From the sequence record NZ_CP069398.1: a DNA stretch of 64,000 nt; one strand, written 5' to 3'. Both the position numbers and the translations under genes were made by a program. Source of the stretch: a plasmid. Positions 35,459 through 54,099 of the stretch are shown one piece after another. Position 1 is the stretch's first letter. Every line of letters begins with the position of its first letter. Below the pieces are notes generated by a model. It was not told where the DNA came from. It saw only the letters and a program-made list of their open reading frames with translations, and made no database searches.

Positions 35459-35633
35459 TCCTAACTTAATAAATTATTGATCATTTCATTAACCTTCTAA
35501 AAAAGTTAAATATTTCAACAAGTTATATTGTACAGATAATTCTTATATTTTTCATCTAAATTTGTAATATCATTATAAAAGACTATTACTATAGAGATAT
35601 CTTAGAATCTTTATAGCAACAGTCTTTTTTTCA

Positions 35634-36168
35634 TTAACTTATCTTAGTATTTTTCACGCTTAAATCTCTAATTAAATCTTGAATTTCGTTATTATCATAA
35701 ATTTTCTTTATCATTCCCTCTTTATCTAACAAGAACAAAGTAGGTACTTCTTTTATTTGATAATTAACCGAGAGGTCGTTCGATCGAATTAAATACATAT
35801 TCTTGTGAGTGACTAAGTTTGATAAATTTTCAAGTTCAGGATTTTCATCAGCTATAACAATTACTCTAATTGAAGGTGGAATCTTATTTTTAATTAATAT
35901 AAAGGTTTCTTTACACATATTACATATATCATCCGCAAAGAATAACAAAGTAAATGAATTATTAAAGTCACTTAATTTAACTAAATTCCCTTCATTATCG
36001 GTTTCTTTAAAAAGTGGAGCTTTCTTTCCAGCTGCCAACAAATTAGAATTTGTTTTTTCGATACGTAGATTTTTAAGGAAATGAGTAATAGATTTTGTGA
36101 GTAGAAATATAAATAAAGTTTGGATTATCACAACAACCCAAAGAATTATATTAGAGTATACTAAAGTA
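35634..36168 (-). pseudogene. TlpA/redoxin-like thiol-disulfide oxidoreductase, severed from its start codon and first 4 codons by the Tn3-family insertion
   Basis: The body encodes a signal anchor, then ...FADDICNMCKE (a CxxC variant) and a thioredoxin fold. The original ATG GGA CAT ACT lies at 49301-49312. Joining the minus strand across the TSD gives MGHTLVYSNIILWVV... in frame, with AAAAGGTG as RBS. At present the frame reads into the IR (MTLFYKYLGRTPT-), so residual expression is possible. Confidence 0.6.
36164..36168. repeat. target-site duplication AAGTA (left copy)
   Basis: Identical 5-mers directly abut the outer ends of both terminal IRs, as is typical for Tn3 family. Confidence 0.8.
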
Positions 36169-36210
36169 GGGGTACGACCGAGGTACTTGTAAAAAAGGGT
36201 CATAGCATGG
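36169..36210 (+). repeat. Tn3-family terminal inverted repeat (left)
   Basis: GGGGTACGACCGAGGTACTTGTAAAAAAGGGTCATAGCATGG. Confidence 0.85.
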
Positions 36211-36582
36211 ATTTTTTTTACATTTACAACCCTTTTTACTCTGTAGGGTAGGGTGGGGTCAGAAAAGTGCGGTTGTTGGTAGGATCCTAATAGGGGTAGT
36301 GTCATTGTCGCTACTCCTATTAAGGAATACTTAAACTAAATCACAAATTAATAAGAAGAAACACATCTTAAAAAATGAGCATTGAACCTTTGCATAATAA
36401 GCAAAAGTCCTTTAAAATTTGTTAGCCGGGTAGAAAATGCTATAATGCTCTTATAAAAAAGAATGGATGCAAAATAGTTTAGGTAAGTTCTAAAACGATT
36501 TCTTTTATTCTTCGACAAACAGGCCAGATTCGTAATTTCTCAAGAGAATAATACAAGTCGCTGTAGGGGTTTTTGTGTTTTT

Positions 36583-37570
36583 TCACTTATGATTACTTTG
36601 ATATACAAGACCTATTTCATCTCTCACTTTATCCAACACTTGTATCGTGGTGTATGAATTTTTATATGAGTTAGTATCAGACTCTGTTTTTCCTCGGTTG
36701 ATTAATTCAATAAATTCTTTCACTTCGTAATACATAGCTGGATGAGATTGGTCGACTGTTAATTGTTCAACCGTGCCGTCAGTGTAGTGAATTTCTACTT
36801 TTTCAGCCGTATGAATCTTATCAATCATGATACTTCCTTTTTCGCCTTGAATTTCGCTTGGTAAATAAGAGTTCGTTATTTTGGAATACATCACAATCGC
36901 ATCTTTATCATCATATTTTAAGATGACGCTACCTTCACCATCCACACCCGAATCAAGCATAATGCCAGTTGCCTTCACTTCTTTTGGTTCACCAAATAAT
37001 GTAATAAGTGGATACAAACAATAGACACCAAGGTCCATTAATGAACCGTTCGCAAACTCTGGATTGAAGGCATTAAGGACAATTCCTTCTTTGTATTTAT
37101 CATAACGAGATGAATACTGACAATAGCTTGCAAAGTATCTACGGATAGGACCAATTTTATGTAAATTATCTTGAATGACCTTGAAGTTTGGAAGTAAGGT
37201 TGATTTCATTGCTTCCATTAATAGGGCGTTATGATCTTTTGCGGCTTGAATCATCCTCGCTACTTCGGTTGCATTAACAGCCAGTGGCTTTTCACATAAC
37301 ACATGTTTGCCATTTTGCAAAAATAAAATAGCTTGTTCTGCGTGATATGAATTGGGAGTAGCCAATGTACACCGCGTCAATTTCTTGACTAACTGCCATT
37401 TCTTTTAGGTTTGTAAATATTTTTGTTACTCCATATTTACTTGCAAATTCTTCTGCTCTACTAATCGTGCGAGAATAAACAGCAGTTAGTTTAAAATCTT
37501 CTACATCATTTGCTGCTTCAAGTAATCTTTCTGTAATCCAATTAGTACCGATTACGCCGAATCGAACCAT
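36583..37570 (-). pseudogene. Gfo/Idh/MocA-family NAD(P)-dependent oxidoreductase, frameshifted
   Basis: Two overlapping ORFs together encode MVRFGVIGTNWI...IDAVYI / ATPNSYHAEQA... An apparent +1 insertion (extra G in TACATTGGCTAC) near 37362 changes the frame. Confidence 0.55.
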
Positions 37571-37928
37571 TTATTCAACCTCATTCCTTTGTTTTATAAA
37601 ACGAAGAGTTTTGTTTACTACACTTATGAAGCGTTTTTCATCGCCAATAGGATTTTATTTTCCCATAAAAAAACTTATATAGACATGGGGCCTACCAGTG
37701 AAATATTGGTGATAACCCAAATAGGGCTCATACTGTGAGTGATGGCTAAATTCTTGGCTGTGCCCCACCCAATAATGATCTCTGATCCGGCCATAGAAGG
37801 GACTGAATCAGAGGCTATTTTTTCTTTCCTGTATGGACTGTGTTATTTGTAATATGCAGTAAAGACCGCAATTCATAAAAGAAATAAATGCGGTCTTTAC
37901 GATGTTTCCATATTTTTTAAAGTGTACT

Positions 37929-38486
37929 CTATTCGAGATTGGCATGTTTGCCGTACATTTTAGTAGAGTCTAAGCCTTTTTTTTCCATAAAACGCAAGAT
38001 CAATGCATCATAAAATAATAACATCGTTTGCTCAAAAAGTGACCCCATTGGTTGTATGGTCTTATATTCACTTTCAGATTGATCTTTCGGTGATCCAGGC
38101 AATTTAATGATAATATCAGCTAATTTTCCAATCGTGGAGTCAGGGGAAATCGTTACAGCTGCGACCGTCCCACCTAAACTTTTTGCTTTTTCAGCGATTG
38201 AAACCAAGGTTTTCGTTTCACCTGAACCTGAACCGATGATCAACAAATCACCTTTTTCTAAATTTGCTGTTACAGTTTCACCGACTACATAAGCATCGAT
38301 CCCCATGTGCATCATTCTCATCACGAAAGATTTGCCCATAAATCCAGATCTGCCCGCACCTGCAACAAAGATTTTTTTGGATTCCAGAATCTTATTAACC
38401 AACTTCTCTGCTTCTTCGTCAGAGATTAAGTCGACTGTCCGACTTAATTCTTGAACGACTTCAGCTAAATATTGAGTAGTTTTCAT
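37929..38486 (-). CDS. hxlB: 6-phospho-3-hexuloisomerase (SIS domain)
   Basis: A 185-aa SIS-domain protein (VAGAGRSGFMGKSFVMR...IIGSGSGET) directly downstream of hxlA, as in the Bacillus hxlAB operon. Confidence 0.8.
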   Translation of the reverse strand: MKTTQYLAEVVQELSRTVDLISDEEAEKLVNKILESKKIFVAGAGRSGFMGKSFVMRMMHMGIDAYVVGETVTANLEKGDLLIIGSGSGETKTLVSIAEKAKSLGGTVAAVTISPDSTIGKLADIIIKLPGSPKDQSESEYKTIQPMGSLFEQTMLLFYDALILRFMEKKGLDSTKMYGKHANLE

Positions 38487-38494
38487 AGTTATAA

Positions 38495-39127
38495 TTAACC
38501 TTGTTTAATTAATTCTTGCATTTTAGCTGCAACTGCTTTTTTATCGTCTTTGCTTGTGATACCGCCACCTACGATGACAAGATCTGGTTGTACTTTAATC
38601 ACATCTGGAAGTGTTTCTAATTTGATTCCGCCTGCAATAGCAGTTTTCGCATTTTTTACAACGCTCTTAATGGTTGCAAGGTCTTCGAAAGAATTTTTTC
38701 CTACAGCTTGAAGGTCATAACCTGTGTGAACGCAGATATAATCTACTCCTAGTTCATCCAGTTCTTTCGCACGACCTTCAATGTCTTTAACTGCGATCAT
38801 ATCAGCAAGGATTTGTTTACCTTGTTTTTTTGCTTCTTCTACAGCACCTTTAATGGACTCGTCTTCAGCTGTACCAAGAATGGTGATGATGTCAGCGCCT
38901 GCTGCAGATGCTTGGCTAACTTCATATCCAGCTGCATCCATGATTTTAAGGTCAGCTAATACAGTTAAGTTAGGGAAGGCAGCTTTCACTTCCTTTACTG
39001 CTTTAAGGCCTTCATTAATCACAACCGGCGTGCCGATTTCTACAACATCTATATGATTTTCTACTTCTTTCACCAATTCAATGGCTCCTGGAATATCTAC
39101 AAGATCTAATGCTAATTGTAATTTCAT
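38495..39127 (-). CDS. hxlA: 3-hexulose-6-phosphate synthase
   Basis: MKLQLALDLVDI...VEIGTPV...VLADLK..DA...GVDYICVHTGYDLQAVG...IAGGIK...VIVGGGI is about 70% identical by eye to B. subtilis HxlA. Confidence 0.85.
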   Translation of the reverse strand: MKLQLALDLVDIPGAIELVKEVENHIDVVEIGTPVVINEGLKAVKEVKAAFPNLTVLADLKIMDAAGYEVSQASAAGADIITILGTAEDESIKGAVEEAKKQGKQILADMIAVKDIEGRAKELDELGVDYICVHTGYDLQAVGKNSFEDLATIKSVVKNAKTAIAGGIKLETLPDVIKVQPDLVIVGGGITSKDDKKAVAAKMQELIKQG

Positions 39128-39331
39128 TTATTACTCGCTCCTTATATAATAGTATAATTGTGCCGTATAGCTTTCTTTTGCACAGTGTTATTGTATCCAA
39201 TTGATAGCTATTTACTAACGGTATGATACTCAGTATACTGGGTATGTTACTAAATTAAAAGTATGCACTTTTTTATCATATAGTAACAAAAAGTATACTA
39301 TGGGACATAATAAGGGTTGGAGGTGAAATGA

Positions 39332-39697
39332 ATGCCGAATCTTGGGGAAAAAGTGTTTAATTGTGAAAAAGAATTGACTCTTTCGATTATTGGTGGAAAA
39401 TGGAAAATGTTGGTATTGTGGCATCTAGGAAAAGAAGGAACCAAACGTTTTGGTGAACTAAAGGCCCTCATGCCGGGTATCACTCAAAGAATGCTTGTTA
39501 ATCAATTGCGCGAACTTGAAGACCATTTGATTGTTCATCGTGAAGTCTATCCTGTCGTTCCACCAAAAGTTGAATACTCACTCACTGAGTATGGAAGAAG
39601 TCTGATGCCTATTCTGGAAGCTATGTATGACTGGGGTAAAGATTATATTGAGAATGTATTGGAAAAAGAAACAGAAAACAAATCGTCTATTCAGTAG
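39332..39697 (+). CDS. hxlR: HxlR-type winged-helix transcriptional activator
   Basis: The HxlR/MarR-like sequence ...[16 protein letters not shown]...[25 protein letters not shown]... lies divergent from hxlAB. Confidence 0.8.
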
Positions 39698-39863
39698 AAA
39701 AAAGAGTTTCTCCTAGGGGTTCGAAAAAGTGTAAAAAAGTTCATATACTAACAAACCACGGTTAGCTATCTTAATAAAGATGCTGTCCGTGTTTTTTTAT
39801 ATCTCTACGTATTTAAAAGGTTGAAAAAACACAACATTTAATAAAAGAATCAGTTACTAAAAA

Positions 39864-39908
39864 GCCAAGGGCAGCGAATCTTGTATAATCGCTGTCCTTG
39901 GCTTTTCA
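39864..39908 (+). terminator. strong rho-independent terminator after hxlR
   Basis: A 14-bp stem, GCCAAGGGCAGCGA..TCGCTGTCCTTGGC, followed by TTTT. Confidence 0.7.
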
Positions 39909-40158
39909 CTCTTGGTATTGGATTCAAGTTTATAGTATTATTTTTAACACTATGTTATACCAATGTATCTATATGTTAATAAAGTGCGTACTTTCAAAAG
40001 TATAACATACGTAATATACTGATTTTGCTCAAGTAATAGCGAGCTTAAAGAATACTACCAAACCTTAAGGGAATACTGCTACAAGCATGGTGAGATGAAG
40101 TGAAACTTCATTTAATAATTTATACATGTTGTTGCTTTTTACGAAAGGAGAGATCCGC

Positions 40159-40323
40159 ATGGAAAGGTTCAAAACTAAGCAGCGAAAAGTTTGTGAAAGA
40201 TGTCTAATCATCACCATAAATAATGAAACCTGTCCAAAATGTGGACATTCTCAATTAAGAGATATCATTATTACCGGACAAGCTGGGAGAAATAAACGAA
40301 ACTTACATCCAAAAGTAGGATAA
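40159..40323 (+). CDS. small zinc-ribbon protein, hypothetical
   Basis: CERC...CPKCGH (four Cys). AAAGGAGAG lies 8 nt upstream of the ATG. Confidence 0.4.
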   Translation: MERFKTKQRKVCERCLIITINNETCPKCGHSQLRDIIITGQAGRNKRNLHPKVG

Positions 40324-40419
40324 CGCAATAGCGAAAATCCTTGTTGTTTTGTAGGGGAAACGAAGAAAATCAGACATTTTTCTATTTGAAAATGCTTTGA
40401 AAAAGTGGAGGAATGAAAA

Positions 40420-41892
40420 GTGGATTCTATGACGTTTGTCTTATTTGGGGCAACTGGGGATTTAGCTAAGCGAAAAATCTACCCTGCCTTGTTTAATTTA
40501 TATTTGAATCAAAAATTACCAGATTCTTTTTTGATCATTGGTGTAGGAATAGACGAAATGTCTGATGTTGATTTTCAAAACCATGTAACAGACTCGCTAT
40601 ACACTTTTTCTAGACACTTGATAAATGATAAATCCGAAAAACAAGAGTTTGTAAAGGCATTTCGTTATTGCCAGTTAGATTTCACGAATGCTGAAGGGTA
40701 TAAGAAGTTAGTTGAAGTCGTTCAACAAAATGAAAAAGACCAGAGTATTGAAGAGAATCGAATGTTTTATCTTTCTGTTGCTCCTGAATTCTTTGATGTA
40801 ATTGCTTTAAACATAAAGGAGAGTGGCTTAGGTTCGACAAAGGGATGGAAACGATTGATTATCGAAAAACCATTTGGGTATGACTTAAAATCTGCTGAAG
40901 ATTTAAACGAAAAATTAAGCAAAGCTTTTGAAGAAGATGAAATTTTCCGGATTGACCATTATCTCGGAAAACCAATGGTTCAAAACCTTGAAGCCTTGGA
41001 ATTTGCCAATCCTGTGCTGCAATCACTTTGGAACAATCGGTTTATTGCCAATGTGCAAATTACGGCTAGTGAAACGGTTGGTGTAGAAGAGAGGGCTGGT
41101 TATTATGACCAAGCAGGCGCTATTCGTGATATGGTTCAAAATCATATGCTACAGCTGTTGATGATGACAGCCATGCATCTCCCAAAACAGATTAGTGCAA
41201 AAGATATCCGTAATGAGAAAAGAAAAGTTATGGAATCTCTGCGACCATTACAGAAAAATACTGTAGGTATCCACGTCGTTCGTGGCCAATATGGATCAGG
41301 TGAAATAAACGGTACACCAGTAGTCAGATACTTAGAAGAACCTGGCGTTGATGCTTCTTCTAAAAACGATACATTCGTCGCTGCTCGTCTATGGATTGAT
41401 AATTCCTTCTGGGACGGGGTCCCATTCTATATCCGGACAGGAAAAAGAATGACGGAAAAATTAACGCGGATTGTGATTGAATTCAAAAACCCATTAAAGA
41501 ATTTGTATACCAATGAAATCCAAAATGCTGAACCCAATCTATTAGTTATTAATGTAAGTCCTAATGAAGGTGTTTCGTTGCAGTTAAATAGTAAAAACCC
41601 GATAAATGGAAAATTAGAACCTATTGTTGTTGATTTTTCAGCGAGTAAAAAAGACGTGCCCGAAGCATATGAACTCTTAATATTTGATGCTCTGCGTGGG
41701 GACTCTACCTTCTTTGCTCATTGGGACGAAGTTGAATTATCTTGGAAATGGGTACAGCCCGTTTTAGAGGCGTTTGAGGAAAATGCCCTTCCACTCCACC
41801 TATATCAAGCCGGTTCGATGGGGCCACAAGCTGCTTCGCAATTATTGGAGGAGGATGGTTTTAAATGGTGGGAAACTAGGGGGGGAGTTTAA
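40420..41892 (+). CDS. zwf: glucose-6-phosphate 1-dehydrogenase
   Basis: The N-terminal NADP-binding motif FGATGDLAKRKIYPAL and the G6PD signature RIDHYLGKPMVQNL. GGAGG lies 9 nt ahead of the GTG start. Confidence 0.9.
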   Translation: MDSMTFVLFGATGDLAKRKIYPALFNLYLNQKLPDSFLIIGVGIDEMSDVDFQNHVTDSLYTFSRHLINDKSEKQEFVKAFRYCQLDFTNAEGYKKLVEVVQQNEKDQSIEENRMFYLSVAPEFFDVIALNIKESGLGSTKGWKRLIIEKPFGYDLKSAEDLNEKLSKAFEEDEIFRIDHYLGKPMVQNLEALEFANPVLQSLWNNRFIANVQITASETVGVEERAGYYDQAGAIRDMVQNHMLQLLMMTAMHLPKQISAKDIRNEKRKVMESLRPLQKNTVGIHVVRGQYGSGEINGTPVVRYLEEPGVDASSKNDTFVAARLWIDNSFWDGVPFYIRTGKRMTEKLTRIVIEFKNPLKNLYTNEIQNAEPNLLVINVSPNEGVSLQLNSKNPINGKLEPIVVDFSASKKDVPEAYELLIFDALRGDSTFFAHWDEVELSWKWVQPVLEAFEENALPLHLYQAGSMGPQAASQLLEEDGFKWWETRGGV

Positions 41893-42090
41893 TCCGCACC
41901 TCCCTGGAAGGCTATTGGTATGAAGAGAGCAAACCGAGGTTGGATTTGACAGATAATTGTTACGCGATTTACCCAAGGAACTTAAAGTATTTGTTGAATC
42001 CTTATGGTTCCATAAGGAGACCATGAAGAACAACAAATGGGTAGCATAATAATACAGGCTATTTTTTGTAATTTAAAGGAGGAAACTCAA

Positions 42091-42984
42091 GTGAAAGTAG
42101 GATTAATTGGATTAGGGAAAATGGGTATGAACTTAGGAAAAAACTTAATTGACAATAAACACCGTGTAATGGCGTTTGATCTAAATACAAATACTATTGA
42201 AGAAATTAAAAAATACGGAGTTGAAGGAGCATCCAGTTTACAAGATCTTGTTCAATCATTAGAAAAGCCACGAGTTGTTTGGATAATGGTCCCACACTCC
42301 GTCGTTGATTCAGTTATTAGTGAAATCACACCATTTCTAAGTGAAGGAGATATCGTCATTGAAGCTGGTAATTCGCATTATAAGGAATCCATTCGTCGTT
42401 ACGAACAGTTGAAGAAAGTTGGAGTGAGCTTTATGGATGCCGGTACTTCTGGGGGGATGGAAGGTGCTCGCTATGGTGCTTGTTATATGATTGGTGGAGA
42501 TCCTGAAGCATGGAGCATTGTCGAGCCGATTTTTAGAGATACAGCTGTAGATAATGGGTATTTATATGCTGGGAAATCTGGTAGTGGCCACTTCTTAAAA
42601 ATGGTCCACAATGGAATAGAATACGGAATGATGGCCGCCATTGGTGAAGGATTCGAAGTCCTGGAAAAAAGCGATTTCGATTTTGACTATGAAAAAGTGG
42701 CACGGGTGTGGAATAACGGTTCTGTCATCCGCTCATGGCTCATGGAATTGACAGAACGCGCATTTTCTAAAGATGCAAAATTAGATGAAATTAAGGGCAT
42801 TATGCATTCTTCTGGGGAAGGGAAATGGACAGTTGAAACCGCTTTGGATCTTCAAACAGCTACCCCTGTTATCGCTATGTCTTTACTAATGCGTTACCGT
42901 TCATTAGACAATGATACATTTACAGGTAAAGTGGTAGCTTCCCTTCGTAATGAATTTGGCGGACATGCTGTGGAAAAATCATAA
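42091..42984 (+). CDS. 6-phosphogluconate dehydrogenase (decarboxylating), short ~300-aa form (YqeC/GndA-like)
   Basis: The GTG start at 42091 follows AAGGAGG. It has the Rossmann fold GLIGLGKMGMNLGKNL plus GGDPEAW and KMVHNGIEYGMMAAIGEGF. Confidence 0.8.
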   Translation: MKVGLIGLGKMGMNLGKNLIDNKHRVMAFDLNTNTIEEIKKYGVEGASSLQDLVQSLEKPRVVWIMVPHSVVDSVISEITPFLSEGDIVIEAGNSHYKESIRRYEQLKKVGVSFMDAGTSGGMEGARYGACYMIGGDPEAWSIVEPIFRDTAVDNGYLYAGKSGSGHFLKMVHNGIEYGMMAAIGEGFEVLEKSDFDFDYEKVARVWNNGSVIRSWLMELTERAFSKDAKLDEIKGIMHSSGEGKWTVETALDLQTATPVIAMSLLMRYRSLDNDTFTGKVVASLRNEFGGHAVEKS

Positions 42985-43094
42985 AGTCATCTGCTGTATA
43001 TGTCTTTCGTTAAAATGAGCCGGAAATTCATTGGATTTTTAGTTTGGTATATCCCAAAAATTGGTAGATTTACTTAAGTCGTTGATAGTGCTAA

Positions 43095-43300
43095 CTATGT
43101 TGATTGAAGCGGAAGGAGCGAGACTCCTCGAAAATGCATTCACATTTTCTCGTGCGGTGCCTATTCACGGATGATGATTCAACGTCCTGCGGGAAAAACA
43201 TGACAAGGGAGACCCCGCAGCCGCACAGCGCCGAGGAGGCTCCCGGCTCGCCCGCGGAAAGCGAGCACCTGGAGCCAACAGACAAGTTTAACAGAGCCAA
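43095..43300. other. GC-rich multi-hairpin intergenic element of unknown function
   Basis: Four local hairpins, GGAGCGAGACTCC, GAAAATG-CATTCA-CATTTTC, CTGCGGG-N20-CCGCAG and GCTCGC-CCGCGGAAA-GCGAGC, sit in an AT-rich context. ORFs across the region on both strands have implausible composition. Confidence 0.35.
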
Positions 43301-43330
43301 AAAAATAAAACAATATTGAGGTGTGACATC

Positions 43331-43822
43331 ATGAACGTATTGGATGCAAAAATCATTAACACACAATATGGTTTAGAAACCTATTTAGACATGGTGAAGA
43401 ATATCGAAGTAAAAGAACTCCATTCTCCATCAGATAATGAGCCCTTTTATGAAATAGTATTAGGGATAGAGTATTTTCTTCTAAGGGACGGAAAATATTA
43501 TGATAGTGAAAGGAATTATTTTCGGATTCAAATGAGCGAAGATTTTAATTCAATCACGTTAAGAGAGACAGATACCGAAAGTTTATTTGCTGTCAAAACC
43601 GAACACGAGAGAGACTCAACTAAGCTACTGGTTGGAGAATGGCTTATAAAAACCAATGCTTTCAAGCAAGTAATAAGTGAACTGATCCAACAAAAGAAAA
43701 TGGAGAATGTTCAAAATGAGGGAGACACTCGAAAAGTATTAGGAACGATAAGATTCTTGGAAATATTACTTGAAATCAAAACAGAAGACATACTAAGTGC
43801 CGATGTAGAGAGGGACCATTGA
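43331..43822 (+). CDS. hypothetical protein
   Basis: The ATG at 43331 lies 7 nt after GAGGTG. A 163-aa acidic product. Confidence 0.45.
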   Translation: MNVLDAKIINTQYGLETYLDMVKNIEVKELHSPSDNEPFYEIVLGIEYFLLRDGKYYDSERNYFRIQMSEDFNSITLRETDTESLFAVKTEHERDSTKLLVGEWLIKTNAFKQVISELIQQKKMENVQNEGDTRKVLGTIRFLEILLEIKTEDILSADVERDH

Positions 43823-44062
43823 GTTTTCTTAATACTAACTGTCTTTTAATGTACGCTATTGATAATTACACGGTCCCACTAAGGATTTTTCAAAATTGAA
43901 AAGGGGGAGTTTAAATGTGTTTTTAAAAACTTCCCTTATATACTGTAGAAAAGGAGAATGCACTAACATGAAACGTTTTACTATGCCGAGAGATCTTTTT
44001 TACGGAGAAGGATCTCCGATTGAAGCAGCTAAGCTAAATTTGATTGAAAGGGGAAGTAATGT

Positions 44063-45400
44063 ATGACTATTTCGTTTGATTACTCCAATGCATTAGCATT
44101 TATGAAAAAGAGTGAAGTAGATAATCTAAGTGAATTTGTAAAAGTGGCTCATAAAATGCTACATGAAAAAACAGGCCCCGGCTCTGATTATCTTGGTTGG
44201 GTCGATTTGCCACTAAACTATGATAAGAGTGAATTTGAAAGAATTAAACAAGCTGCTGAAAGAATCAAGAAACATTCAGACGCAATGGTTGTAATTGGTA
44301 TTGGTGGTTCGTATTTGGGTGCAAGATCAGCTATAGAAGCTTTGTCCCATAGCTTTCATAACCAAATGAACGATAAGACAAAAGTGTATTTTGCCGGTCA
44401 CAATATCAGTTCTACTTATATATCTCATTTATTTGAACTATTAGAGGGGAAAGATATCTCTGTTAACGTCATTTCCAAATCAGGAACAACGACAGAGCCA
44501 GCCCTTGCTTTCCGTATTTTTCGTGACTATATGGAGAAAAAATACGGAAAAGAAGAGGCGAGAAAACGTATTTTTGCCACTACTGATCAGGAAAAAGGCG
44601 TATTAAAAAAGCTCGCGGACAAAGAAGGATATGAAACGTTTGTTATTCCGGATGATGTAGGTGGAAGGTATTCTGTGCTAACAGCAGTTGGTCTCTTACC
44701 AATTGCCGTAGCAGGACTTGATATTGATCATATGATGGAAGGGGCAGCAGCAGCAGCCCGTAAATACAACAATCCTGATTTATTGACAAATGAGAGCTAT
44801 CAGTATGCTGCGGTCCGAAATGTACTCTACAATAAGGGAAAAGCAATTGAAGTGCTTGTTAACTATGAGCCCTCCCTTCACTACGTATCGGAATGGTGGA
44901 AGCAGCTGTTTGGGGAAAGTGAAGGAAAAGATCAAAAGGGGCTATTCCCTGCTTCCGTTGATTTTTCAACGGATTTGCATTCCATGGGGCAATATGTACA
45001 AGAAGGTCGACGAAACCTTTTAGAAACGGTTTTACAGATTAAGAAACCTCGAATTGAAGTGACTATTCAGGAGGATCCAGAAAATATTGATGGATTAAAC
45101 TTCCTGGCAGGTAAGACGATGGATGAAGTCAACAAAAGTGCATTTCAGGGTACCCTTATGGCCCATATAGATGGAGAAGTACCTAATCTCGTGATTGAAC
45201 TGGATGAAATGAATGAATACACTTACGGTGAGATGGTTTACTTTTTTGAGAAGGCATGTGGGATTAGTGGCCATCTATTAGGAGTTAACCCATTTGACCA
45301 GCCTGGAGTCGAAGCATACAAGAAGAATATGTTTGCTTTACTTGACAAACCTGGTTTTGAAGCAGAAAAAGCTACTCTCATGGAGCGTTTATCAAAATAA
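44063..45400 (+). CDS. pgi: glucose-6-phosphate isomerase (Bacillus-type ~450 aa)
   Basis: The N-terminus [16 protein letters not shown]...[17 protein letters not shown] closely matches Bacillus Pgi. The SIS domains are present. Confidence 0.9.
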
Positions 45401-45409
45401 TTATATCTG

Positions 45410-45600
45410 ATTGGTTTTGTATTAATAAAAAGATTGTTACCAAAAACCATATTTTTTGTAACAATATTTATGAGAAATACTGATGCTTGATTTTACTAAT
45501 TTTATAGGTTACCAAAAATAATTACCAAAAGTTTTACCAAATACTTTTACAAAAATGATGTCTCTTGTACAATTAGATTATTAAATTGTGCAGGAGGCTT
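45410..45600. promoter_or_regulatory. res (resolution) site candidate upstream of tnpR
   Basis: TTACCAAAA-type motifs are repeated (TGTTACCAAAAACCA, GGTTACCAAAAATAATTACCAAAAGTTTTACCAAATAC). TGTNACA-like half-sites are consistent with three resolvase binding subsites. Confidence 0.45.
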
Positions 45601-45604
45601 CTTT

Positions 45605-46171
45605 ATGATAATCGGTTATGCTCGAGTTTCGACAGTTGACCAAAATTTAGACCGACAAATTATATTACTTTCTGAGTACGGCTGTGAAAAAATGGTTCAA
45701 GAGAAATTTACTGGGACTACAAAGGATAGAGATGGACTTAACTCATTGCTAGATGTAATAAGGAAAGGTGATACCGTTGTAGTAGAAAGTATTTCACGCT
45801 TAGGGAGAAAAACACTTGATATTCTTTCTATTATTCAGCAATTCGAGGATACTGGTGTAAAGTTCGTTTCTATTAAGGAGAACATGGATACAAGAACATC
45901 AACGGGAAAAGCCATGTTTCAAATGATGTGTGTCATCGCAGAGTTAGAAAGAAATTTAATTGTAGAAAGAGTTAAAGAAGGGTTAGAAGCGAGTAAAAGA
46001 AGAGGAAAAAAACTAGGAAGGCCTAAAGTGGATCAAGGGAAAATTGAAATAGCCTTGAGGATGTATGACAGTAAAGAATACTCGGTAAAAGAAATTGTAG
46101 AAGGTACAGGACTTTCACAGGGATCATTATATCGAGCGATTAATAAAAGAAAACTAGTAGAAGCAAATTAA
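45605..46171 (+). CDS. tnpR: serine recombinase / resolvase
   Basis: MIIGYARVSTVDQNLDRQ... carries the catalytic Ser, and the C-terminus is an HTH. The gene is co-directional with tnpA. Confidence 0.9.
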   Translation: MIIGYARVSTVDQNLDRQIILLSEYGCEKMVQEKFTGTTKDRDGLNSLLDVIRKGDTVVVESISRLGRKTLDILSIIQQFEDTGVKFVSIKENMDTRTSTGKAMFQMMCVIAELERNLIVERVKEGLEASKRRGKKLGRPKVDQGKIEIALRMYDSKEYSVKEIVEGTGLSQGSLYRAINKRKLVEAN

Positions 46172-46242
46172 TAATCTCTTATATTTTTAGGGAATTATGT
46201 GACGGACTAGGGCAGCTACTCTGTCACCACCCCCAACTTAAT

Positions 46243-49209
46243 TTGAATGGAGTTGGTAATTTGGCATCTATAGAACGTACGGCTTATCCAAGATTTAAAA
46301 AACGTCCTACTTCAAAAGAACTTCGTGATGTTTACTCCCCTACACCTGAAGAAAACCAATTTGCGCATAAAGTTGCTAGAGGACCTGTTTCAGTTCTAAG
46401 TCTATTAGTTATGTTAAAGTCTTTCCAACGACTTGGTTACTTTCCTCGACCGAAAGATATTCCTGTAGAGATCATGATTCATATTCGGACCTGTTTGAAT
46501 CTCTCTGCTAGTGTTGAACCGAATTACAATAGTAAATCAATTTACCGACATCAAAAAGCAATTAGAGATTACCTCAATGTACGTCCTTATGGAAAAGAAG
46601 CCTTACATATTGCAACTACTTCAATTTATAAGGCTACACAGGTAATGGACAATCCAGCCGATCTTATCAACGTATCCATTGAAATATTAATAAAAGAAAG
46701 GTGTGAATTACCTGCTTTTAGTACATTAGATCGATTGGCTCGTCGTATAAGAACATTAGTGAATCACCAGTTATTTAATTCAGTATTTTCAAAATTGACT
46801 CCTGAAATTGAGCGAAAATTAGATCAATTACTAGTTACTAAAAATGATAATCGGACTTCTGAATATAACTTATTAAAAGAAATTCCAAAAAGCGCAACAC
46901 TTTCGCATATGAAAGAAATACAAAATAGGTTACTTCTGTTAACTGATTTTATAGAAGAAATTGATAGCTTACTAGAGGATATTCCAAATTTAAAAATTAA
47001 ACACTTCGCTTTAGAAGCAAAAGCGCTTGATGCATCAGAATTAAAAGACTTTAATTTAGCTAAAAGATATATGCTGCTACTTTGTATGATTTATCGCTCA
47101 AAAATTTCAGCTATAGATAGTTTGGTAGAGATGTTTCTCAAAAGAGTCAGAACAATACATAACAAAGGCAAAGAGGAGCTAGAACTTCTTCGAGAAAAAC
47201 ATAGATCAAAAACTGAAAATCTTATATCTGTTTTGGCGGAAGTCTTAAATGCCACAAGTATAAATGAGAACGATACCTTGACTGGTCAGAAAATAAGGGA
47301 GTTATTAGGGAGAAGAGGTGGTATCGACGCATTAAAAGAAGATTGTGAATCAATTTCATCATATAATGGCAATAACTACCTTCCTCTTTTATGGAAGTTC
47401 TATAAAAGCCACAGGAAAACTCTTTTTAGATTGATTAGTATGATTGAAATTAATTCAACCACACAGGATCAATCACTTTTAGAAGCTTTACAATTTTTAC
47501 GTGATAATGAGAACCGAAAAATTGAAAATCTACAAATAGATTTGGATCTTTCATTTGCTAGTGAACAGTGGAAAAAAACGATTTATGTACCTAAAGAAAA
47601 TAACTTAATCCATCGTAAACACCTTGAAATCTGTATTTTTTCCTATCTTGCAAGCGATTTAAAAACGGGAGACCTTTGTGTAAAAGGATCAGAGAATTTT
47701 GCTGATTACCGTGAACAGCTCCTTTCTTGGGATGAGTGTAAACCTATGGTAGATGAATACTGTAAGGAACTTGGCTTTTCTTCAAATTCAGGGGATTTTG
47801 TTCAACAATTAAAGCTCTGGCTAGGAGATACTGCACAAAAAGTAGATTTAAACTACCCTGATAACGGCCAGGTAATCATTAATGAAAATGGAGAACCAAC
47901 GTTGAGAAAAATAATGAGAAAAGAACAACCTCAGACAAGTAAGGCGTTAGAGGTAGTTATTTCTCAACGGTTACCTGAACGAAATGTCTTAGATATTCTT
48001 TGTAATGTAGAACATTGGACAAATTGGACACGGCATTTTGGACCATTATCTGGTTCAGATCCTAAGCTTGAAAATGCAATGGAACGTTATATCATTACTT
48101 CTTTTGGATACGGATGTAATTTAGGACCAACACAGACTTCTAAGCACATGAAAAAAGCAGTAACCCCACACATGATTTCATTTGTAAATCGGCGACATAT
48201 TAATGCATCTAAAATAGACGAAGCTATTCGTAATATTTTAAATCAATACAATCAATTTAGTTTGCCTAGACTATGGGGTGATGGAAAAACGGCTGCTGCA
48301 GATGGAACAAAATTTGATCTCTACGAAGAAAACTTAATCTCTGAATACCACATTCGATACGGAGGTTATGGGGGGATTGCATATCATCATGTTTCAGATA
48401 CTTATATTGCACTCTTTAGTCACTTCATTCCATGTGGAGTTTGGGAAGCAGTTTATATTATTGATGGTTTGCTGAAAAATAAATCAGACATTCAGCCCGA
48501 TACGTTACATGCTGATACGCAAGGTCAATCAACGCCTGTTTTTGCACTTGCACATTTATTGGGGATTAATTTAATGCCTCGTATTCGAAATTGGAAGGAT
48601 TTAAAATTTTACAGGGCTGATAAGGACACAAAATATCACCACATTGATCAGTTGTTTAGTGATACCGTTGACTGGGACCTAATTGAAACACACTGGCAAG
48701 ATCTGCTCCAAGTGGTTCTTTCTATAAAAGCTGGTAAAATATTACCCTCTACACTACTTAGAAAACTAAGTAACTATAGTAGAAAAAACCGATTATATCA
48801 AGCTTTTAGGGAATTAGGAAGGATTGTAAGAACTGTATTTTTGCTTAAATATATTTCTGATATAAAACTAAGAGAGCAAATTGGTGCTAGTACAAACAAA
48901 GTCGAAGCATATAACGGCTTTTCCAAATGGCTATTTTTTGGTGGCGATGGGATCATTTCAGAAAATGATCCAGAAGAACAAGAAAAGCGAATTAAATATA
49001 ATGATTTAGTTGCCAACGCAGTAATATTCCAAAATGTATGTGATATAACACTTATTTTGTGGGAACTTTCTAAAGAAGGCTATGTATTTTCAAAAGAAGA
49101 TATTGTCATGCTTAGCCCTTATCTGACTAGGCATATAAAACGTTTCGGAGACTATATGATCGATTTAGAAAATATTCCACAACCAATCGAGGGAGATATT
49201 CCTGTATAG
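46243..49209 (+). CDS. tnpA: Tn3-family DDE transposase
   Basis: The 988-aa length is typical. It ends about 50 bp inside the right IR. The C-terminal catalytic region includes ...DGTKFD... and ...LHADTQGQS.... Confidence 0.8.
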   Translation: MNGVGNLASIERTAYPRFKKRPTSKELRDVYSPTPEENQFAHKVARGPVSVLSLLVMLKSFQRLGYFPRPKDIPVEIMIHIRTCLNLSASVEPNYNSKSIYRHQKAIRDYLNVRPYGKEALHIATTSIYKATQVMDNPADLINVSIEILIKERCELPAFSTLDRLARRIRTLVNHQLFNSVFSKLTPEIERKLDQLLVTKNDNRTSEYNLLKEIPKSATLSHMKEIQNRLLLLTDFIEEIDSLLEDIPNLKIKHFALEAKALDASELKDFNLAKRYMLLLCMIYRSKISAIDSLVEMFLKRVRTIHNKGKEELELLREKHRSKTENLISVLAEVLNATSINENDTLTGQKIRELLGRRGGIDALKEDCESISSYNGNNYLPLLWKFYKSHRKTLFRLISMIEINSTTQDQSLLEALQFLRDNENRKIENLQIDLDLSFASEQWKKTIYVPKENNLIHRKHLEICIFSYLASDLKTGDLCVKGSENFADYREQLLSWDECKPMVDEYCKELGFSSNSGDFVQQLKLWLGDTAQKVDLNYPDNGQVIINENGEPTLRKIMRKEQPQTSKALEVVISQRLPERNVLDILCNVEHWTNWTRHFGPLSGSDPKLENAMERYIITSFGYGCNLGPTQTSKHMKKAVTPHMISFVNRRHINASKIDEAIRNILNQYNQFSLPRLWGDGKTAAADGTKFDLYEENLISEYHIRYGGYGGIAYHHVSDTYIALFSHFIPCGVWEAVYIIDGLLKNKSDIQPDTLHADTQGQSTPVFALAHLLGINLMPRIRNWKDLKFYRADKDTKYHHIDQLFSDTVDWDLIETHWQDLLQVVLSIKAGKILPSTLLRKLSNYSRKNRLYQAFRELGRIVRTVFLLKYISDIKLREQIGASTNKVEAYNGFSKWLFFGGDGIISENDPEEQEKRIKYNDLVANAVIFQNVCDITLILWELSKEGYVFSKEDIVMLSPYLTRHIKRFGDYMIDLENIPQPIEGDIPV

Positions 49210-49257
49210 TATATAAGAAAGTAAAGAGCAAGAAAGGGTTATAAATGGTAAACAATA

Positions 49258-49299
49258 CCATACTATGACCCTTTTTTACATGTATCTCGGTCGTACCCC
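49258..49299 (-). repeat. Tn3-family terminal inverted repeat (right)
   Basis: The reverse complement, GGGGTACGACCGAGATACATGTAAAAAAGGGTCATAGTATGG, matches the left IR at 39/42. Confidence 0.85.
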
Positions 49300-49304
49300 A
49301 AGTA
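49300..49304. repeat. target-site duplication AAGTA (right copy)
   Basis: Identical to 36164-36168. Confidence 0.8.
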
Positions 49305-49326
49305 TGTCCCATAGCAAACACCTTTT

Positions 49327-49914
49327 CTAATTGTTATTTTTTAAAGACGAGATAATCTTATTAAAGTTTTCTATTATATGAATTAGTTCTCTAATTAGCA
49401 ATAATAAAATAATTATACAAATGGAAATGATTAAATATTGCCATGATTTATATCCAAATGCATAAACAGGGTTATTCGTATTTATTAAAGTATCAATAGA
49501 GAACAATGAATTTTTATTAAATGAAATTAAAAGTGCGGTTATAATGAGAAGAATATTTCTCACAACCAGTTTCCACGATAATTGATGATTCCCTAAAACT
49601 CCTCCACATCCACATGATATTTCTGTACGTCCCCGTAATAAATTTATAGAAATAGCAGTAATATAGACAAATAACAACGAAACTGCGCCTATGATAGCTA
49701 CTATTTCTAAAAGTCCGATTATTAGAAGTATTCCAACGGCTAATTCTGCTATAAAGTCCAATCTTCCAGCTATCTTAGAAAAATTAGAAGGTATTACTTT
49801 ATAATCGCTAATTATTCCAATATGTTTATCAAAATTGTTATATTTTGAAATAGCACTACTTAGAAAGATAAACGCTAAAAATACCCTTAAAAATAATTCT
49901 AATGCTGAGTTCAT
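49327..49914 (-). CDS. MauE/DoxX-like integral membrane protein
   Basis: Four to five TM helices and a CGCGG motif. The gene overlaps the ABC transporter stop by 4 nt (operon). Confidence 0.5.
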   Translation of the reverse strand: MNSALELFLRVFLAFIFLSSAISKYNNFDKHIGIISDYKVIPSNFSKIAGRLDFIAELAVGILLIIGLLEIVAIIGAVSLLFVYITAISINLLRGRTEISCGCGGVLGNHQLSWKLVVRNILLIITALLISFNKNSLFSIDTLINTNNPVYAFGYKSWQYLIISICIIILLLLIRELIHIIENFNKIISSLKNNN

Positions 49915-51725
49915 ACAAGCACCTCTTGAACTTCTTTCTTATCTTGATACCATTGAGCCTGACTATTATACATTTCTGCGTATAGGGCACCTAATTTTAT
50001 TAAATCATCATGAGTTCCTTCCTCAACGATCTGTCCATTTTTTAAAACTAGAATACGATCCGCAAGTTTAGCAGAGGCCATTCTGTGAGAAATAAATAAT
50101 GTCGTTTTATCTTTAGAAAGTTCATTAAACTTGTTATATATATTTAATTCCGTGATAGGGTCTAAAGCTGAAGATGGTTCATCTAATATTAATACCTCAG
50201 CATCCCTAAATAATGCTCTAGATATAGCGATTTTTTGCCATTGTCCACCAGATAAATCCACTCCACTCCCCAAAAAATTCCCTAACAAAGTATCGTATCC
50301 CTTATTAAGCTTATTGATAAAATCATGCGAATCTGCCAATTGAGACGTAGCTAGTATCTTTTCTTTGTTATTTATTTCACCAGTAGAACTTATTGCTATA
50401 TTCTCAAAGGCTTTAAAGTAATATTTCATAAAATCTTGAAAGATGATGGAGAACTTGTTTCTTATGTCATTAGGGTTTATATAATTTGAATCAATATTAT
50501 CATATAAAATTGACCCACTGGTTGGTTTGTACAAACCTGCTAAACACTTAACTAAAGTAGTTTTCCCGGAACCATTCCTACCAACAATGGCGATTTTCTC
50601 CCCTGGTTTAATTGTTAAAGAAATATCTTTCAGAATCTCATTTTCACTATTTAAATATCTGAAAGAAATGTTCTTTAATTCTATACCCTTCTGCAATTTT
50701 TCATGTAAGAGCTGTTGCACTTTTCGATTGTCATTTAATTCATCTTCAGTGTTATAATCTACAAATTTATAATAATCATTAATATATAATGATTTCTCAT
50801 AAATTTGCGCCAAATCAACTGCAATTCCATTAATTGAACTTTGAGTAGTATGGACTGCTTCACCTATTACAACAAACTCCCCAATTTGAATTTTGGTTTT
50901 TTTTATGAGCCATATTATAATGAATGCTGCCCCTCCGTAAAACAAAGCCGATGCTCCATCTAAAGCAATTTTAGATTGATGTTCTTTTTTGGCTAACAAT
51001 AAATTTGCTTTATTATTCTTAATAAATTTTTTAGACCACTTATGTAATAAAAAATCTCTTAAATTAAAAGAACGGATTTCTTTAGAAGCTTCCCGAACTT
51101 TGATCAATTGTGAAATATAATCAGCCTCACGAGCTTCAGGTGTAGTATTGTATAGCAACCAGAAGCGTTTATCTCCAAATTTAGAGTTAATAATAAACAT
51201 AGGTATACATACAACTAAACTAAAGACTACTAAAGACCAATGGATGCTAAATAAGAACCCTAGCATAGAGATTAAAGTAATAAAAGTCCTAAAAATTTGT
51301 ATTACTGACTTAAAAGGAGCCAAGAAAGCATTCCCACTACCATCTAATCTCGATAAATGATTGTAAAAATTATTATCATCAAAATACTCTAAAGGAATAG
51401 AGGAAGCCCTTTTTAATATTTCAGATTCTAAATAATAATTTAAATGCAATTGGAATTTTTTATCTATATAGTCATTAATATTAGTTATAAATGTACTAGC
51501 TAAAGAAATGAATAACTGTAAAATTAACAATGTAATTGGTAAAGAAAAATCATAATCAGAGTGATTGATGCTGTAAGCTAAGGAGTTAACTAGTTCTTTA
51601 GTTATGAATAGTACGAGAACAGGCACAACCCCTAATAAAATATTAGAAAAAACAGAAATAAAAATCCAAGATTTTCCCATGGACCAAATTAATTTAAAAG
51701 CTTTTGTCATGTTAATTATGTTCAA
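49911..51725 (-). CDS. fused ABC exporter (6-TM permease plus ATP-binding domain), bacteriocin/peptide-export type, without C39 peptidase domain
   Basis: Walker A GRNGSGKTT, signature LSGGQWQKIAISRAL and Walker B ILILDEPSSALD. The N-terminal half is a hydrophobic transmembrane domain. Confidence 0.8.
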   Translation of the reverse strand: MNIINMTKAFKLIWSMGKSWIFISVFSNILLGVVPVLVLFITKELVNSLAYSINHSDYDFSLPITLLILQLFISLASTFITNINDYIDKKFQLHLNYYLESEILKRASSIPLEYFDDNNFYNHLSRLDGSGNAFLAPFKSVIQIFRTFITLISMLGFLFSIHWSLVVFSLVVCIPMFIINSKFGDKRFWLLYNTTPEAREADYISQLIKVREASKEIRSFNLRDFLLHKWSKKFIKNNKANLLLAKKEHQSKIALDGASALFYGGAAFIIIWLIKKTKIQIGEFVVIGEAVHTTQSSINGIAVDLAQIYEKSLYINDYYKFVDYNTEDELNDNRKVQQLLHEKLQKGIELKNISFRYLNSENEILKDISLTIKPGEKIAIVGRNGSGKTTLVKCLAGLYKPTSGSILYDNIDSNYINPNDIRNKFSIIFQDFMKYYFKAFENIAISSTGEINNKEKILATSQLADSHDFINKLNKGYDTLLGNFLGSGVDLSGGQWQKIAISRALFRDAEVLILDEPSSALDPITELNIYNKFNELSKDKTTLFISHRMASAKLADRILVLKNGQIVEEGTHDDLIKLGALYAEMYNSQAQWYQDKKEVQEVLV

Positions 51726-51754
51726 TTTAAATCACCTTAGTCTTTACATTTTGT

Positions 51755-52270
51755 TCATTTAGTAAGAAATGAATGTAGCTTTCCTGCTAATGAGGTTACC
51801 ATCTCAATTTTTCCGTCATGATTAATAAAAATAAACGTTGGATATTGAGATATATCTGCTCTGTCCAAAAATTCTTTTGAGTACGGTAATGTTTTCACTG
51901 AGTCTTTATATTGATAAATAAACTCTTTAATTTTATTTTTTTCCTCATCTCTATTTCCAGATGCCACAGACATGACATAGTATTCAGCTTTATATTTATT
52001 TTTATTTTTTAGTAATTGTTCAAGTGCTACATGACAACTTGAACAACTAGTTAAAGAAACCTGTATGATTAACCTTTTGGAAGGAATATTCCAGTTGTGT
52101 GGCATTATTGTTCGAATATCTTCTCCCATCAAAGAGTGTTCTAGTTGTTCTACATTAGCTTCTATATTGGGTAAATAGCTCAATTCTATATTTAATGCTC
52201 GATACTGACAAAAATTAAATATTAATAGTATAAAAAAGCAGACACATATAATGCTTAAAATAATGTTCAT
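51755..52270 (-). CDS. membrane-anchored thioredoxin-like thiol-disulfide oxidoreductase
   Basis: A signal anchor, then LTSCSSCHVA (CxxC), then a thioredoxin fold. Confidence 0.6.
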   Translation of the reverse strand: MNIILSIICVCFFILLIFNFCQYRALNIELSYLPNIEANVEQLEHSLMGEDIRTIMPHNWNIPSKRLIIQVSLTSCSSCHVALEQLLKNKNKYKAEYYVMSVASGNRDEEKNKIKEFIYQYKDSVKTLPYSKEFLDRADISQYPTFIFINHDGKIEMVTSLAGKLHSFLTK

Positions 52271-52447
52271 AAAGACACTTCCTTAAATTTACATAACCTT
52301 GGGAGGTATACAAGGCAAAAAATAAAATGCTTACCTTTTCCTATAATTAAAAATTTAATTATAGGAAGGGAGCATTCTAATCTGTTTTGAATAAGATCCA
52401 GTTAATTAATAACCTTTGTAATTCAAAAGATAAATAGAGTTGCTAAA

Positions 52448-52630
52448 TTAAGAAGAAGATTTACAACAACCAATCTTTTTCTTACTACCGTCACGACAAA
52501 TTTGATATTTCACTGGCGTTGGCTTTAAAATACCAGAACAACTAGTGAAAAATTCGTCCTCACACACCGTTGAACAAAAAGTATCTGCTTGAGTAGTTAC
52601 TCCAAGGCTTTTCATGAACTTTTGTAACAT
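52448..52630 (-). CDS. Cys-rich small secreted peptide precursor (candidate disulfide-rich bacteriocin-like peptide)
   Basis: The 60-aa product is MLQKFMKSLGVTTQADTF-CSTVCEDEFFTSCSGILKPTPVKYQICRDGSKKKIGCCKSSS. Six Cys lie in the C-terminal ~42 aa. AAGGAGG lies 8 nt upstream. It is the first gene of the Trx-ABC-MauE-TlpA operon. Confidence 0.5.
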   Translation of the reverse strand: MLQKFMKSLGVTTQADTFCSTVCEDEFFTSCSGILKPTPVKYQICRDGSKKKIGCCKSSS

Positions 52631-52722: not shown

Positions 52723-52750
52723 ATTATATCTAATTTGAACTTTCTGTTAA
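52723..52750 (-). promoter_or_regulatory. sigma-A-like promoter for the peptide operon
   Basis: On the minus strand, TTAACA and TATAAT are separated by a 16-nt spacer, about 90 nt upstream of the peptide ATG. Confidence 0.4.
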
Positions 52751-52756: not shown

Positions 52757-52812
52757 AAGGAGAAGACAGGAACCTTAGAGAAATTCTTTAAGGTTCCTGT
52801 CTTCTCCTTGTA
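52757..52812. terminator. long perfect hairpin (20-bp stem), terminator or insulator between the upstream gene and the peptide operon
   Basis: CAAGGAGAAGACAGGAACCTTA-N12-TAAGGTTCCTGTCTTCTCCTTG. Confidence 0.55.
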
Positions 52813-53409: not shown

Positions 53410-54006
53410 TTAGTAATTGTATAATACTGTTCCTTGCTTTAAAGATACTGTTCCTGAACCAAGGTTGACTAATTTAATTTTGTAAGACTTACCTTTCGGA
53501 AGGATACCATACTTCTCGAAATTAACACTTCTCCAACCAGCACCCTTAGCTGTTACACCTTTTCCGTAGTATTTACCTGCACTATCATAAACTCTAACTT
53601 CAAGGCTCTGCCCCGATGAATTTTCCATATCGATACACGCTAAATTCTTAAAGGTAGTGCCATCTTTTACCCATTTAGATGTTTTAAAAGTATATTTCCC
53701 AAAATCAACCCCAGTATATTTACCGTAAGGGTAGGACTTGCCCGCAGCTTCTATTTGAGCTTCCACCGAAGTTGACATGCTTTGTTTAGATTGTGAATTC
53801 TCCATCAAGGATTTAATAGCATATTCATAGCTTTCAAAATTAATTTCTTGATCTAGTTCATCATTACTTATTTCACTGTCATCAATTTCTTCGCTTCCAT
53901 CAGCGAGGGCAGTATTACTTACACTAAAGAGCGTAGCTGCACTAAAAGCTGTAACAACTAATTTTTTAATAAAACCTGAATTATTCATACCTTCGGTATG
54001 AGTCAT
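53410..54006 (-). CDS. secreted hypothetical protein
   Basis: Signal peptide KKLVVTAFSAATLFSVSNTALA, then an acidic region, then a Gly/Lys/Tyr-rich beta-like domain. The likely start is the internal Met at MNNSGF. Confidence 0.45.
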   Translation of the reverse strand: MTHTEGMNNSGFIKKLVVTAFSAATLFSVSNTALADGSEEIDDSEISNDELDQEINFESYEYAIKSLMENSQSKQSMSTSVEAQIEAAGKSYPYGKYTGVDFGKYTFKTSKWVKDGTTFKNLACIDMENSSGQSLEVRVYDSAGKYYGKGVTAKGAGWRSVNFEKYGILPKGKSYKIKLVNLGSGTVSLKQGTVLYNY

Positions 54007-54099
54007 GATTTAGTCGAAAATTAATTACTTTTCTATTCTTTTGAAAAATAATTGATCATCCCAATGTTTAAAAGCAGTGTTTCTAAAATTAGTTTCTTA

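Follow-up and report, generated by a model that had tools for sequence, protein, structure and literature searches.

A Tn3-family transposon interrupts the redoxin gene of a cysteine-rich-peptide operon on a Priestia plasmid

We analysed a 64,000-nucleotide stretch of the Priestia plasmid NZ_CP069398.1 (hereafter the window), which carries a 13,131-bp transposon (36169–49299, plus strand) and, on both sides of it, the parts of a cysteine-rich-peptide operon. The transposon is bounded by 42-bp terminal inverted repeats that begin GGGGTACGACCGAG... and are identical at 39 of 42 positions. IR-L (36169–36210, plus strand) opens with GGGGTACGACCGAGGTACTTGTAAAAAAGGGTCATAGCATGG at 36169, and its inverted counterpart in IR-R (49258–49299, minus strand) terminates at 49299. 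Copies of a 5-bp target-site duplication, AAGTA, adjoin the left end (36164–36168) and the right end (49300–49304). The serine resolvase gene tnpR (45605–46171, plus strand; Pfam Resolvase PF00239, 147.6 bits) adjoins tnpA (46243–49209, plus strand), which encodes a transposase of 988 residues that matches NF033527 with 738.5 bits (cut-off 500) and DDE_Tnp_Tn3 with 502 bits (PF01526, E = 1e-150). A Tn3-type DDE transposase, GGGG-starting inverted repeats and a 5-bp target duplication mark the Tn3 family, and we conclude that 36169–49299 is a Tn3-family transposon placed by ordinary Tn3-type transposition. Its GC content is 36.4%, compared with 29.5–29.7% in the flanks. The element resembles the Tn3/Tn917/Tn1546 type in its transposase of about 1,000 residues with a DDE_Tnp_Tn3 domain, its GGGG-starting repeats of about 40 bp, the adjacent serine resolvase, the AT-rich 5-bp target duplications and the siting of its passenger genes, with the resolvase on one side of them and a transposon end on the other. 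It differs in what it carries, namely formaldehyde/RuMP and oxidative pentose-phosphate genes rather than resistance or toxin genes.

The cargo gene closest to IR-L is a GFO/IDH/MocA oxidoreductase gene (36583–37570, minus strand), frameshifted into two ORFs that each cover one half of the Pfam domain; the direction of transcription of this pseudogene is toward the redoxin gene. The annotation of identical transposon copies places hxlB at 37929–38486 and hxlA at 38495–39127, both on the minus strand and pointing toward IR-L. The rest of the cargo (an HxlR regulator gene, zwf, gnd, a hypothetical gene and pgi) occupies 39332–45400 on the plus strand. Together, hxlA, hxlB, the HxlR gene, zwf, gnd and pgi make up the gene set for a cyclic RuMP route that oxidises formaldehyde. 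A literature search returned no paper on a Tn3-family element with hexulose or formaldehyde cargo, and found no name or description for this one.

The transposon recurs in other plasmids with its inverted-repeat ends unchanged. It is 100.0% identical in the Priestia megaterium plasmid NZ_CP069401.1 and in NZ_CP118105.1, and two Paenibacillus urinalis plasmids carry it at 99.9–100.0% identity; the duplications TCTTT and TAACT flank copies in these P. megaterium and P. urinalis plasmids. The Priestia and Paenibacillus plasmids with the 100% identical transposon come from human clinical isolates. In NZ_CP069401.1 (P. megaterium CDC 2008724129), the identical transposon interrupts a polysaccharide-biosynthesis gene. 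A scan of GTDB species representatives matched the inverted repeat exactly in about nine Bacillales species, with 17 stretches in total, and the paired flanks at these other matches have common 5-bp duplications. The duplications at other copies are TCTTT, TAACT, TAAGG, GAATT, TTTAA, GATGT and ATATT. Judged on the reconstructed insertion sites, the transposon showed no preference for the 5′ ends of genes, as the duplications lie at nucleotides 9, 101, 167 and 545 of ORFs or between genes. The tnpR–tnpA–IR-R module (window 45400–49299; transposon positions 9254–13131) is 99.9% identical in AP023016.1 and NZ_AP022938.1, two Bacillus cereus plasmids in which it occurs without the RuMP cargo. Its occurrence there suggests that passenger genes are swapped as modules between these transposons. 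The transposon appears to be an active, widespread Bacillales element that carries a full gene set for formaldehyde dissimilation across genera.

To the right of the transposon lies most of the peptide operon, all of it on the minus strand. Its first gene encodes a 60-residue peptide with six cysteines (52448–52630). It is followed by genes for a second thioredoxin-like protein of 171 residues with a CSSC motif (51755–52270), an ABC exporter in which permease and ATPase are fused and a peptidase domain is absent (49911–51725) and a MauE-family membrane protein (49327–49914), the last two overlapping by 4 bp. The MauE assignment rests on a Pfam MauE match (PF07291, 88.8 bits; cut-off 27) and a CGCGG (CXC) motif that is invariant in four homologues. 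The body of the redoxin gene lies on the far side of the transposon (35634–36168, minus strand). The best promoter-like site of the operon, TTAACA-16-TATAAT (52723–52750, minus strand), is a consensus match only; it precedes the peptide gene. A terminator-like hairpin followed by UUUUAU (35577–35628, minus strand; −23.7 kcal/mol, z = −4.0) comes directly after the redoxin stop codon. Because this site and this hairpin frame the unit, we take the redoxin gene to be its last gene. A perfect palindrome with a 20-bp stem (window 52760–52806) lies between an upstream gene for a 131-residue protein and the promoter of the peptide operon, and probably serves as an insulator or as a terminator for both directions.

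The gene order peptide, thioredoxin-like protein, ABC exporter, MauE, redoxin is kept in divergent relatives. The P. megaterium H2 plasmid NZ_CP071467.1 has the same five genes in the same order at 81% nucleotide identity, the orthologous operon of L007 has an intact redoxin gene of 180 codons 14 nt after mauE, and more distant Logan contigs show the order again with peptides that are 45–51% identical. The five-gene cassette (window 49327–52630; L007, L026, L027 and L029) is conserved as a unit and is extremely rare. Its peptides have the motif F-C...C...C...Y-x-[IV]-C-R-D-G-S-K...[IL]-x-C-C and form a tiny family: a search of 1.84 billion proteins gave three to four genuine members, and two further hits, P0005 and P0007, were set aside as long repeat proteins. 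A literature search that combined MauE with bacteriocins matched only unrelated papers. A known peptide operon with dedicated disulfide enzymes is the sublancin operon, sunA-sunT-bdbA-sunS-bdbB, in which the gene for a small cysteine-containing peptide is likewise transcribed together with genes for an exporter of the ABC type, for a thioredoxin-like protein and for a membrane protein that generates disulfides. The operon described here differs from it in that the membrane enzyme belongs to the MauE family and not to the DsbB family, a glycosyltransferase is missing and the exporter lacks a peptidase domain.

The intact redoxin has 180 residues, with an N-terminal hydrophobic anchor followed by a thioredoxin-fold domain with a CNMC motif. 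It matches Pfam AhpC-TSA (PF00578) with 32 bits (cut-off 26) and falls just below the cut-off of PF08534 (26.1 against 26.6), and its profile matches the ResA structures 1st9 and 2h1b at E = 1e-3 and 3hcz at 2e-7. The best NCBIfam match is MauD (TIGR02661), at 42.9 bits against an equivalog cut-off of 188.6; the ResA subfamily model NF002854 gives 39.1 bits against 170. On these profile scores, the protein is a predicted membrane-anchored CxxC oxidoreductase, for which TlpA-like is acceptable as a class name, and an equivalog of neither MauD nor ResA; its likeness to MauD lies in architecture and neighbourhood only. Four of its homologues have 180 residues and two more distant ones have 179 and 175. 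A start of the form M-x-[NH]-[TS]-L-x-YSN is kept in all those aligned (five to six sequences), relatives at 45–50% identity included, and the CNMC motif corresponds to an invariant C-N-x-C. No relatives of the redoxin were found in the scan of 185,579 species-representative genomes in GTDB.

A 2026 preprint shows MauE to be a functional substitute for DsbB with a CXC active site, and proposes a DsbA-like role for MauD (bioRxiv 10.64898/2026.03.05.709764). As in the mau cluster, a MauE with a CGC motif is encoded directly before a thioredoxin-fold CxxC protein with a hydrophobic N-terminal anchor. Unlike there, no other mau genes are present, the host of the plasmid belongs to the Bacillota, the MauD score is far below the cut-off and the presumptive substrate is a 60-residue, six-cysteine peptide encoded together with an ABC exporter. 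The redoxin shares with ResA, StoA and TlpA a membrane-anchored thioredoxin fold of the AhpC-TSA/Redoxin type with a CxxC motif, but it lacks the basic n-region of ResA, and its partner is MauE and not CcdA or the genes of cytochrome c maturation. Because the preprint presents MauE as DsbB-like and MauD as a proposed DsbA-like protein, the disrupted redoxin would, by inference, be the thiol-oxidase partner of MauE for the peptide.

The transposon lies within this gene. The part on its left runs from codon 4 (Thr) to the stop codon and contains the whole N-terminal anchor and the thioredoxin fold with CNMC, such that the only native residues lost are Met-Gly-His and everything from Thr4 on is retained. 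The native start is orphaned on the other side of the transposon (49301–49326, minus strand), where a AAAAGGTG Shine–Dalgarno sequence is followed by a 6-nt spacer and ATG GGA CAT ACT. Removal of 36169–49304 fuses ATG GGA CAT ACT to TTA GTA TAC... and restores an ORF of 180 codons that begins MGHTLVYSNIILWVV... (MGHTLVYSN...). An identical protein, P0001, is on record (100% identity, 100% coverage). The AAGTA duplication corresponds to nucleotides 9–13 of the coding sequence and so spans codon 4 together with one base on either side, the third of codon 3 and the first of codon 5.

Two public assemblies contain this exact protein and the uninterrupted locus, in which the native start region joins the gene without a break. 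The first, the 8,324-bp contig L001 from run SRR30256273, is 99.96% identical to the window: positions 802–5476 correspond to window 53974–49300 and positions 5472–8324 to window 36168–33316, the two segments overlapping by five bases that form a single AAGTA. The second, contig L025 from run SRR36462770, is slightly more diverged (98.9–99.7% identity) and reads ACT CTA at the site. The filled site was also found elsewhere. Contigs L002 and L031 from run SRR12978823 are both 100% identical to the window and end 30 bp inside IR-R and 30 bp inside IR-L, respectively. Because both junctions thus occur in an independent run, the filled site is no assembly chimera. The original prediction, made from the sequence of the window, was that the transposon landed 4 codons into the redoxin gene and that its removal restores an intact ORF. 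The inverted repeats, the duplication, the empty-site and junction contigs, the protein on record, the other copies of the element with their different duplications and the conserved orthologues bear it out on both points. The gap after the mauE stop codon, given there as 23 bp, has to be corrected to 14 nt (stop codon 49329–49327 to the ATG at 49312). We consider the insertion and the reconstruction proven, and the locus a standard Tn3-family insertion allele. As a textbook event, it is unusually completely documented, by a filled site, two empty sites and sister copies.

The redoxin segment shows zero substitutions relative to L001; the left arm differs at one position only, window 33321, which is well away from the gene. 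Since the gene body is unchanged relative to this empty-site relative and transposon copies are 100% identical in two genera, the insertion event is, judged by these identities, recent. The intact redoxin coding sequence therefore says nothing about selection.

We next consider what the insertion would mean for the gene. On entering the redoxin gene at nucleotides 9–13 and duplicating AAGTA, the transposon severed it from its Shine–Dalgarno sequence and its start codon, from the operon promoter and from its close position 14 nt after mauE. The promoter-like site lies 3.4 kb from the native redoxin start, whereas its distance to the in-frame ATG at 36305, discussed below, has grown to 16.4 kb. 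That the last gene of the operon has been parted from its promoter, as originally predicted, holds: it is 13.1 kb further from the operon than in the original layout seen at the empty sites. Cut off in this way from Shine–Dalgarno sequence, start codon, mauE spacing and operon promoter, the redoxin gene is most probably silent or expressed very weakly. The native start would now produce a 61-residue junk peptide: a by-product ORF, MGHTWGTTEIHVKKGH... (49127–49312, minus strand), runs from the native ATG through IR-R, antisense to the 3′ end of tnpA. Transcription of the peptide operon would also yield RNA antisense to tnpA. The P. megaterium plasmid NZ_CP069401.1 (L004) has a counterpart of this ORF at 15143–15271, a RefSeq-annotated 42-residue remnant that reads into IR-R. 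Any residual redoxin expression would require read-through from same-strand cargo genes together with initiation at ATG 36305, not at the ATG in the inverted repeat.

By analogy with MauE/DsbB and MauD/DsbA, the peptide would form its disulfides less well once the redoxin is lost, unless the other thioredoxin-like protein takes its place. That proviso is the core of an alternative that we regard as rather unlikely, namely that the insertion has no phenotype, whether or not the gene is expressed, because the 171-residue CSSC protein, or housekeeping oxidoreductases of the Bdb type, supply the activity to MauE and the peptide. The second thioredoxin-like gene does lie within the same cassette. 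The sublancin operon of B. subtilis offers a precedent, as its thioredoxin-like protein BdbA is dispensable and it is the membrane partner BdbB that matters. Both thioredoxin-like genes are, however, kept together in every cassette found, down to 45% identity, and this co-retention argues for non-redundant roles.

The gene could also escape silencing if a reading frame left the transposon and continued into it. Terminal repeats are known to permit this kind of crossing: lacZ fusions of Tn3-HoHo1 are made through the open Tn3 inverted repeat, and ISEcp1 supplies an outward promoter. On the minus strand, IR-L reads ATG ACC CTT TTT TAC AAG TAC CTC GGT CGT ACC CC, free of stop codons and in the frame of the redoxin gene. 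The original prediction that CCATGCTATGACC supplies two ATGs thus holds for the open frame through IR-L and for one ATG of the pair. The second (36201–36203, minus strand) is in frame and would start a fusion of 189 residues, MTLFYKYLGRTP-TLVYSN..., whereas the first, at 36208, is out of frame and reads ATG CTA TGA. Measured as duplex energy with the 3′ end of 16S rRNA, ATG 36203 lacks a Shine–Dalgarno sequence (−0.4 kcal/mol), and it sits in the 3′ arm of a predicted hairpin (−14.4 kcal/mol, z = −3.0). A further in-frame ATG upstream (36303–36305, minus strand), missed by the earlier prediction, is preceded by AGGAG-N8 and starts an ORF of 223 codons (35634–36305). Its Shine–Dalgarno energy of −6.8 kcal/mol is within about the top 9% of ATGs on the minus strand; the native redoxin start has −8.5 kcal/mol and the other operon genes −9.5 to −13.4 kcal/mol. 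It too lies within a predicted hairpin (36275–36330, minus strand; −15.4 kcal/mol, z = −4.2), whose stem contains the Shine–Dalgarno sequence and whose loop contains the ATG. This hairpin, AAUAGGAGUAG-N11-CUACCCCUAUU, lies about 100–130 nt inside IR-L and matches no Rfam family.

We searched the region for signals that would start or stop transcription toward the redoxin gene. No outward promoter was detected for the ATG of the inverted repeat, and the minus strand from hxlA to the redoxin gene (39800–35400) showed no terminator-like site. Several strong hairpins without U-tracts are present between hxlB and IR-L on the same strand. An Rfam scan of 33000–56500 gave no RNA family, and none in particular in the 414 bp of non-coding sequence that separate IR-L from the cargo gene closest to it. 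Read-out transcription from the minus-strand hxlA, hxlB and GFO/IDH/MocA genes into the redoxin gene is possible on this gene arrangement. An exact-sequence look-up found neither the 223-residue nor the 189-residue fusion ORF, a result of little information, since contigs assembled from short reads stop 30 bp into the inverted repeats.

We regard it as unlikely that such a fusion is expressed and functional. On this alternative, transcripts from the formaldehyde-inducible hxlAB genes, the GFO/IDH/MocA pseudogene or both would cross IR-L, and translation from ATG 36305 (223 residues) or ATG 36203 (189 residues) would give a protein whose cytoplasmic N terminus is extended and whose anchor and CxxC domain are intact. 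The open frame is in register, and every residue from Thr4 on is kept, the anchor included, so the product could work. AGGAG-N8 before ATG 36305 (−6.8 kcal/mol) and the lack of a terminator-like site on the minus strand in 39800–35400 also favour it, as does a neighbouring IS1380-family insertion that presents a parallel in-frame case. The body of the redoxin gene is undecayed, but recency, as seen in the 100% identical transposon copies, explains this equally well. The ATG in the inverted repeat has no Shine–Dalgarno sequence (−0.4 kcal/mol), both candidate starts lie within predicted hairpins with z-scores of −3 to −4, and several strong hairpins lie between hxlB and IR-L, all of which speaks against it. 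An exit in register carries little weight in itself. The two remaining outward frames of IR-L have a stop or no start, so one of three has a start and no stop, and an in-frame exit is expected in about one third of cases by chance; other insertions of the transposon show no preference for gene 5′ ends. The in-frame start codon at the end of the transposon looks like chance, a fixed property of the inverted repeat that happens to be in register, with no adaptation. The original prediction that an MTLFYKYLGRTPT- fusion could be expressed from read-out transcription therefore stands as far as the open ORF is concerned and is weak at its start, which has no ribosome-binding site and lies in a predicted hairpin. 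If any fusion is made, the start signals make the 223-residue form likelier than the 189-residue form. The similarity to Tn3-HoHo1 is that of a stop-free terminal repeat that gives a translational fusion with the interrupted gene when the insertion is in the right register. The case differs from Tn3-HoHo1 and ISEcp1 in that the frame leads outward from the element into the interrupted gene, with neither an outward promoter nor a usable ribosome-binding site detected for the inverted-repeat ATG.

A stronger version would have the redoxin gene rewired, with formaldehyde-inducible read-through from hxlAB driving a functional 223-residue MauD-like protein and thereby coupling peptide maturation to formaldehyde stress; on the same sequence features, we consider this quite improbable. 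Finally, we give practically no credence to the view that there was no insertion, with the gene starting naturally in inverted-repeat-like sequence or the junctions being an assembly chimera: we found no point in its support, two contigs contain the empty site, both junctions occur in an independent run, other duplications bound the same element elsewhere, and a native start at the inverted-repeat ATG is ruled out because redoxin homologues, divergent ones included, all start M-x-[NH]-[TS]-L-x-Y-S-N. The reading that we prefer is thus a redoxin gene that is most likely silent or nearly so. Near-identical plasmids with and without an intact MauD-like gene beside MauE form a natural allele pair, which permits a direct test of the MauD-like protein as a DsbA-like partner of MauE in a Gram-positive bacterium.

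A second mobile element lies upstream of the peptide operon. This IS1380-family insertion sequence (window 53975–55651, 1,677 bp; DDE_Tnp_1_4, 534 bits) is missing from L001. It has perfect 15-bp inverted repeats (CCTGAATTATTCATA) and a TTTTA duplication, and is inserted 5–6 codons into a gene for a 192-residue signal-peptide protein. The promoter-like site of that gene (55754–55726, minus strand) now reads into the insertion sequence in the orientation of its transposase. The end of the element leaves in-frame ATGs, giving an ORF of 198 codons (53410–54006, MTHTEGMNNSG-FIKK...). Two elements in one 8-kb locus have each entered a gene within its first few codons, in both cases in frame, which we note as a coincidence. 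It could hint at selection for insertions that preserve function; the wider reading, that insertions of this kind persist here because the ends of the elements supply replacement starts, is again quite improbable.
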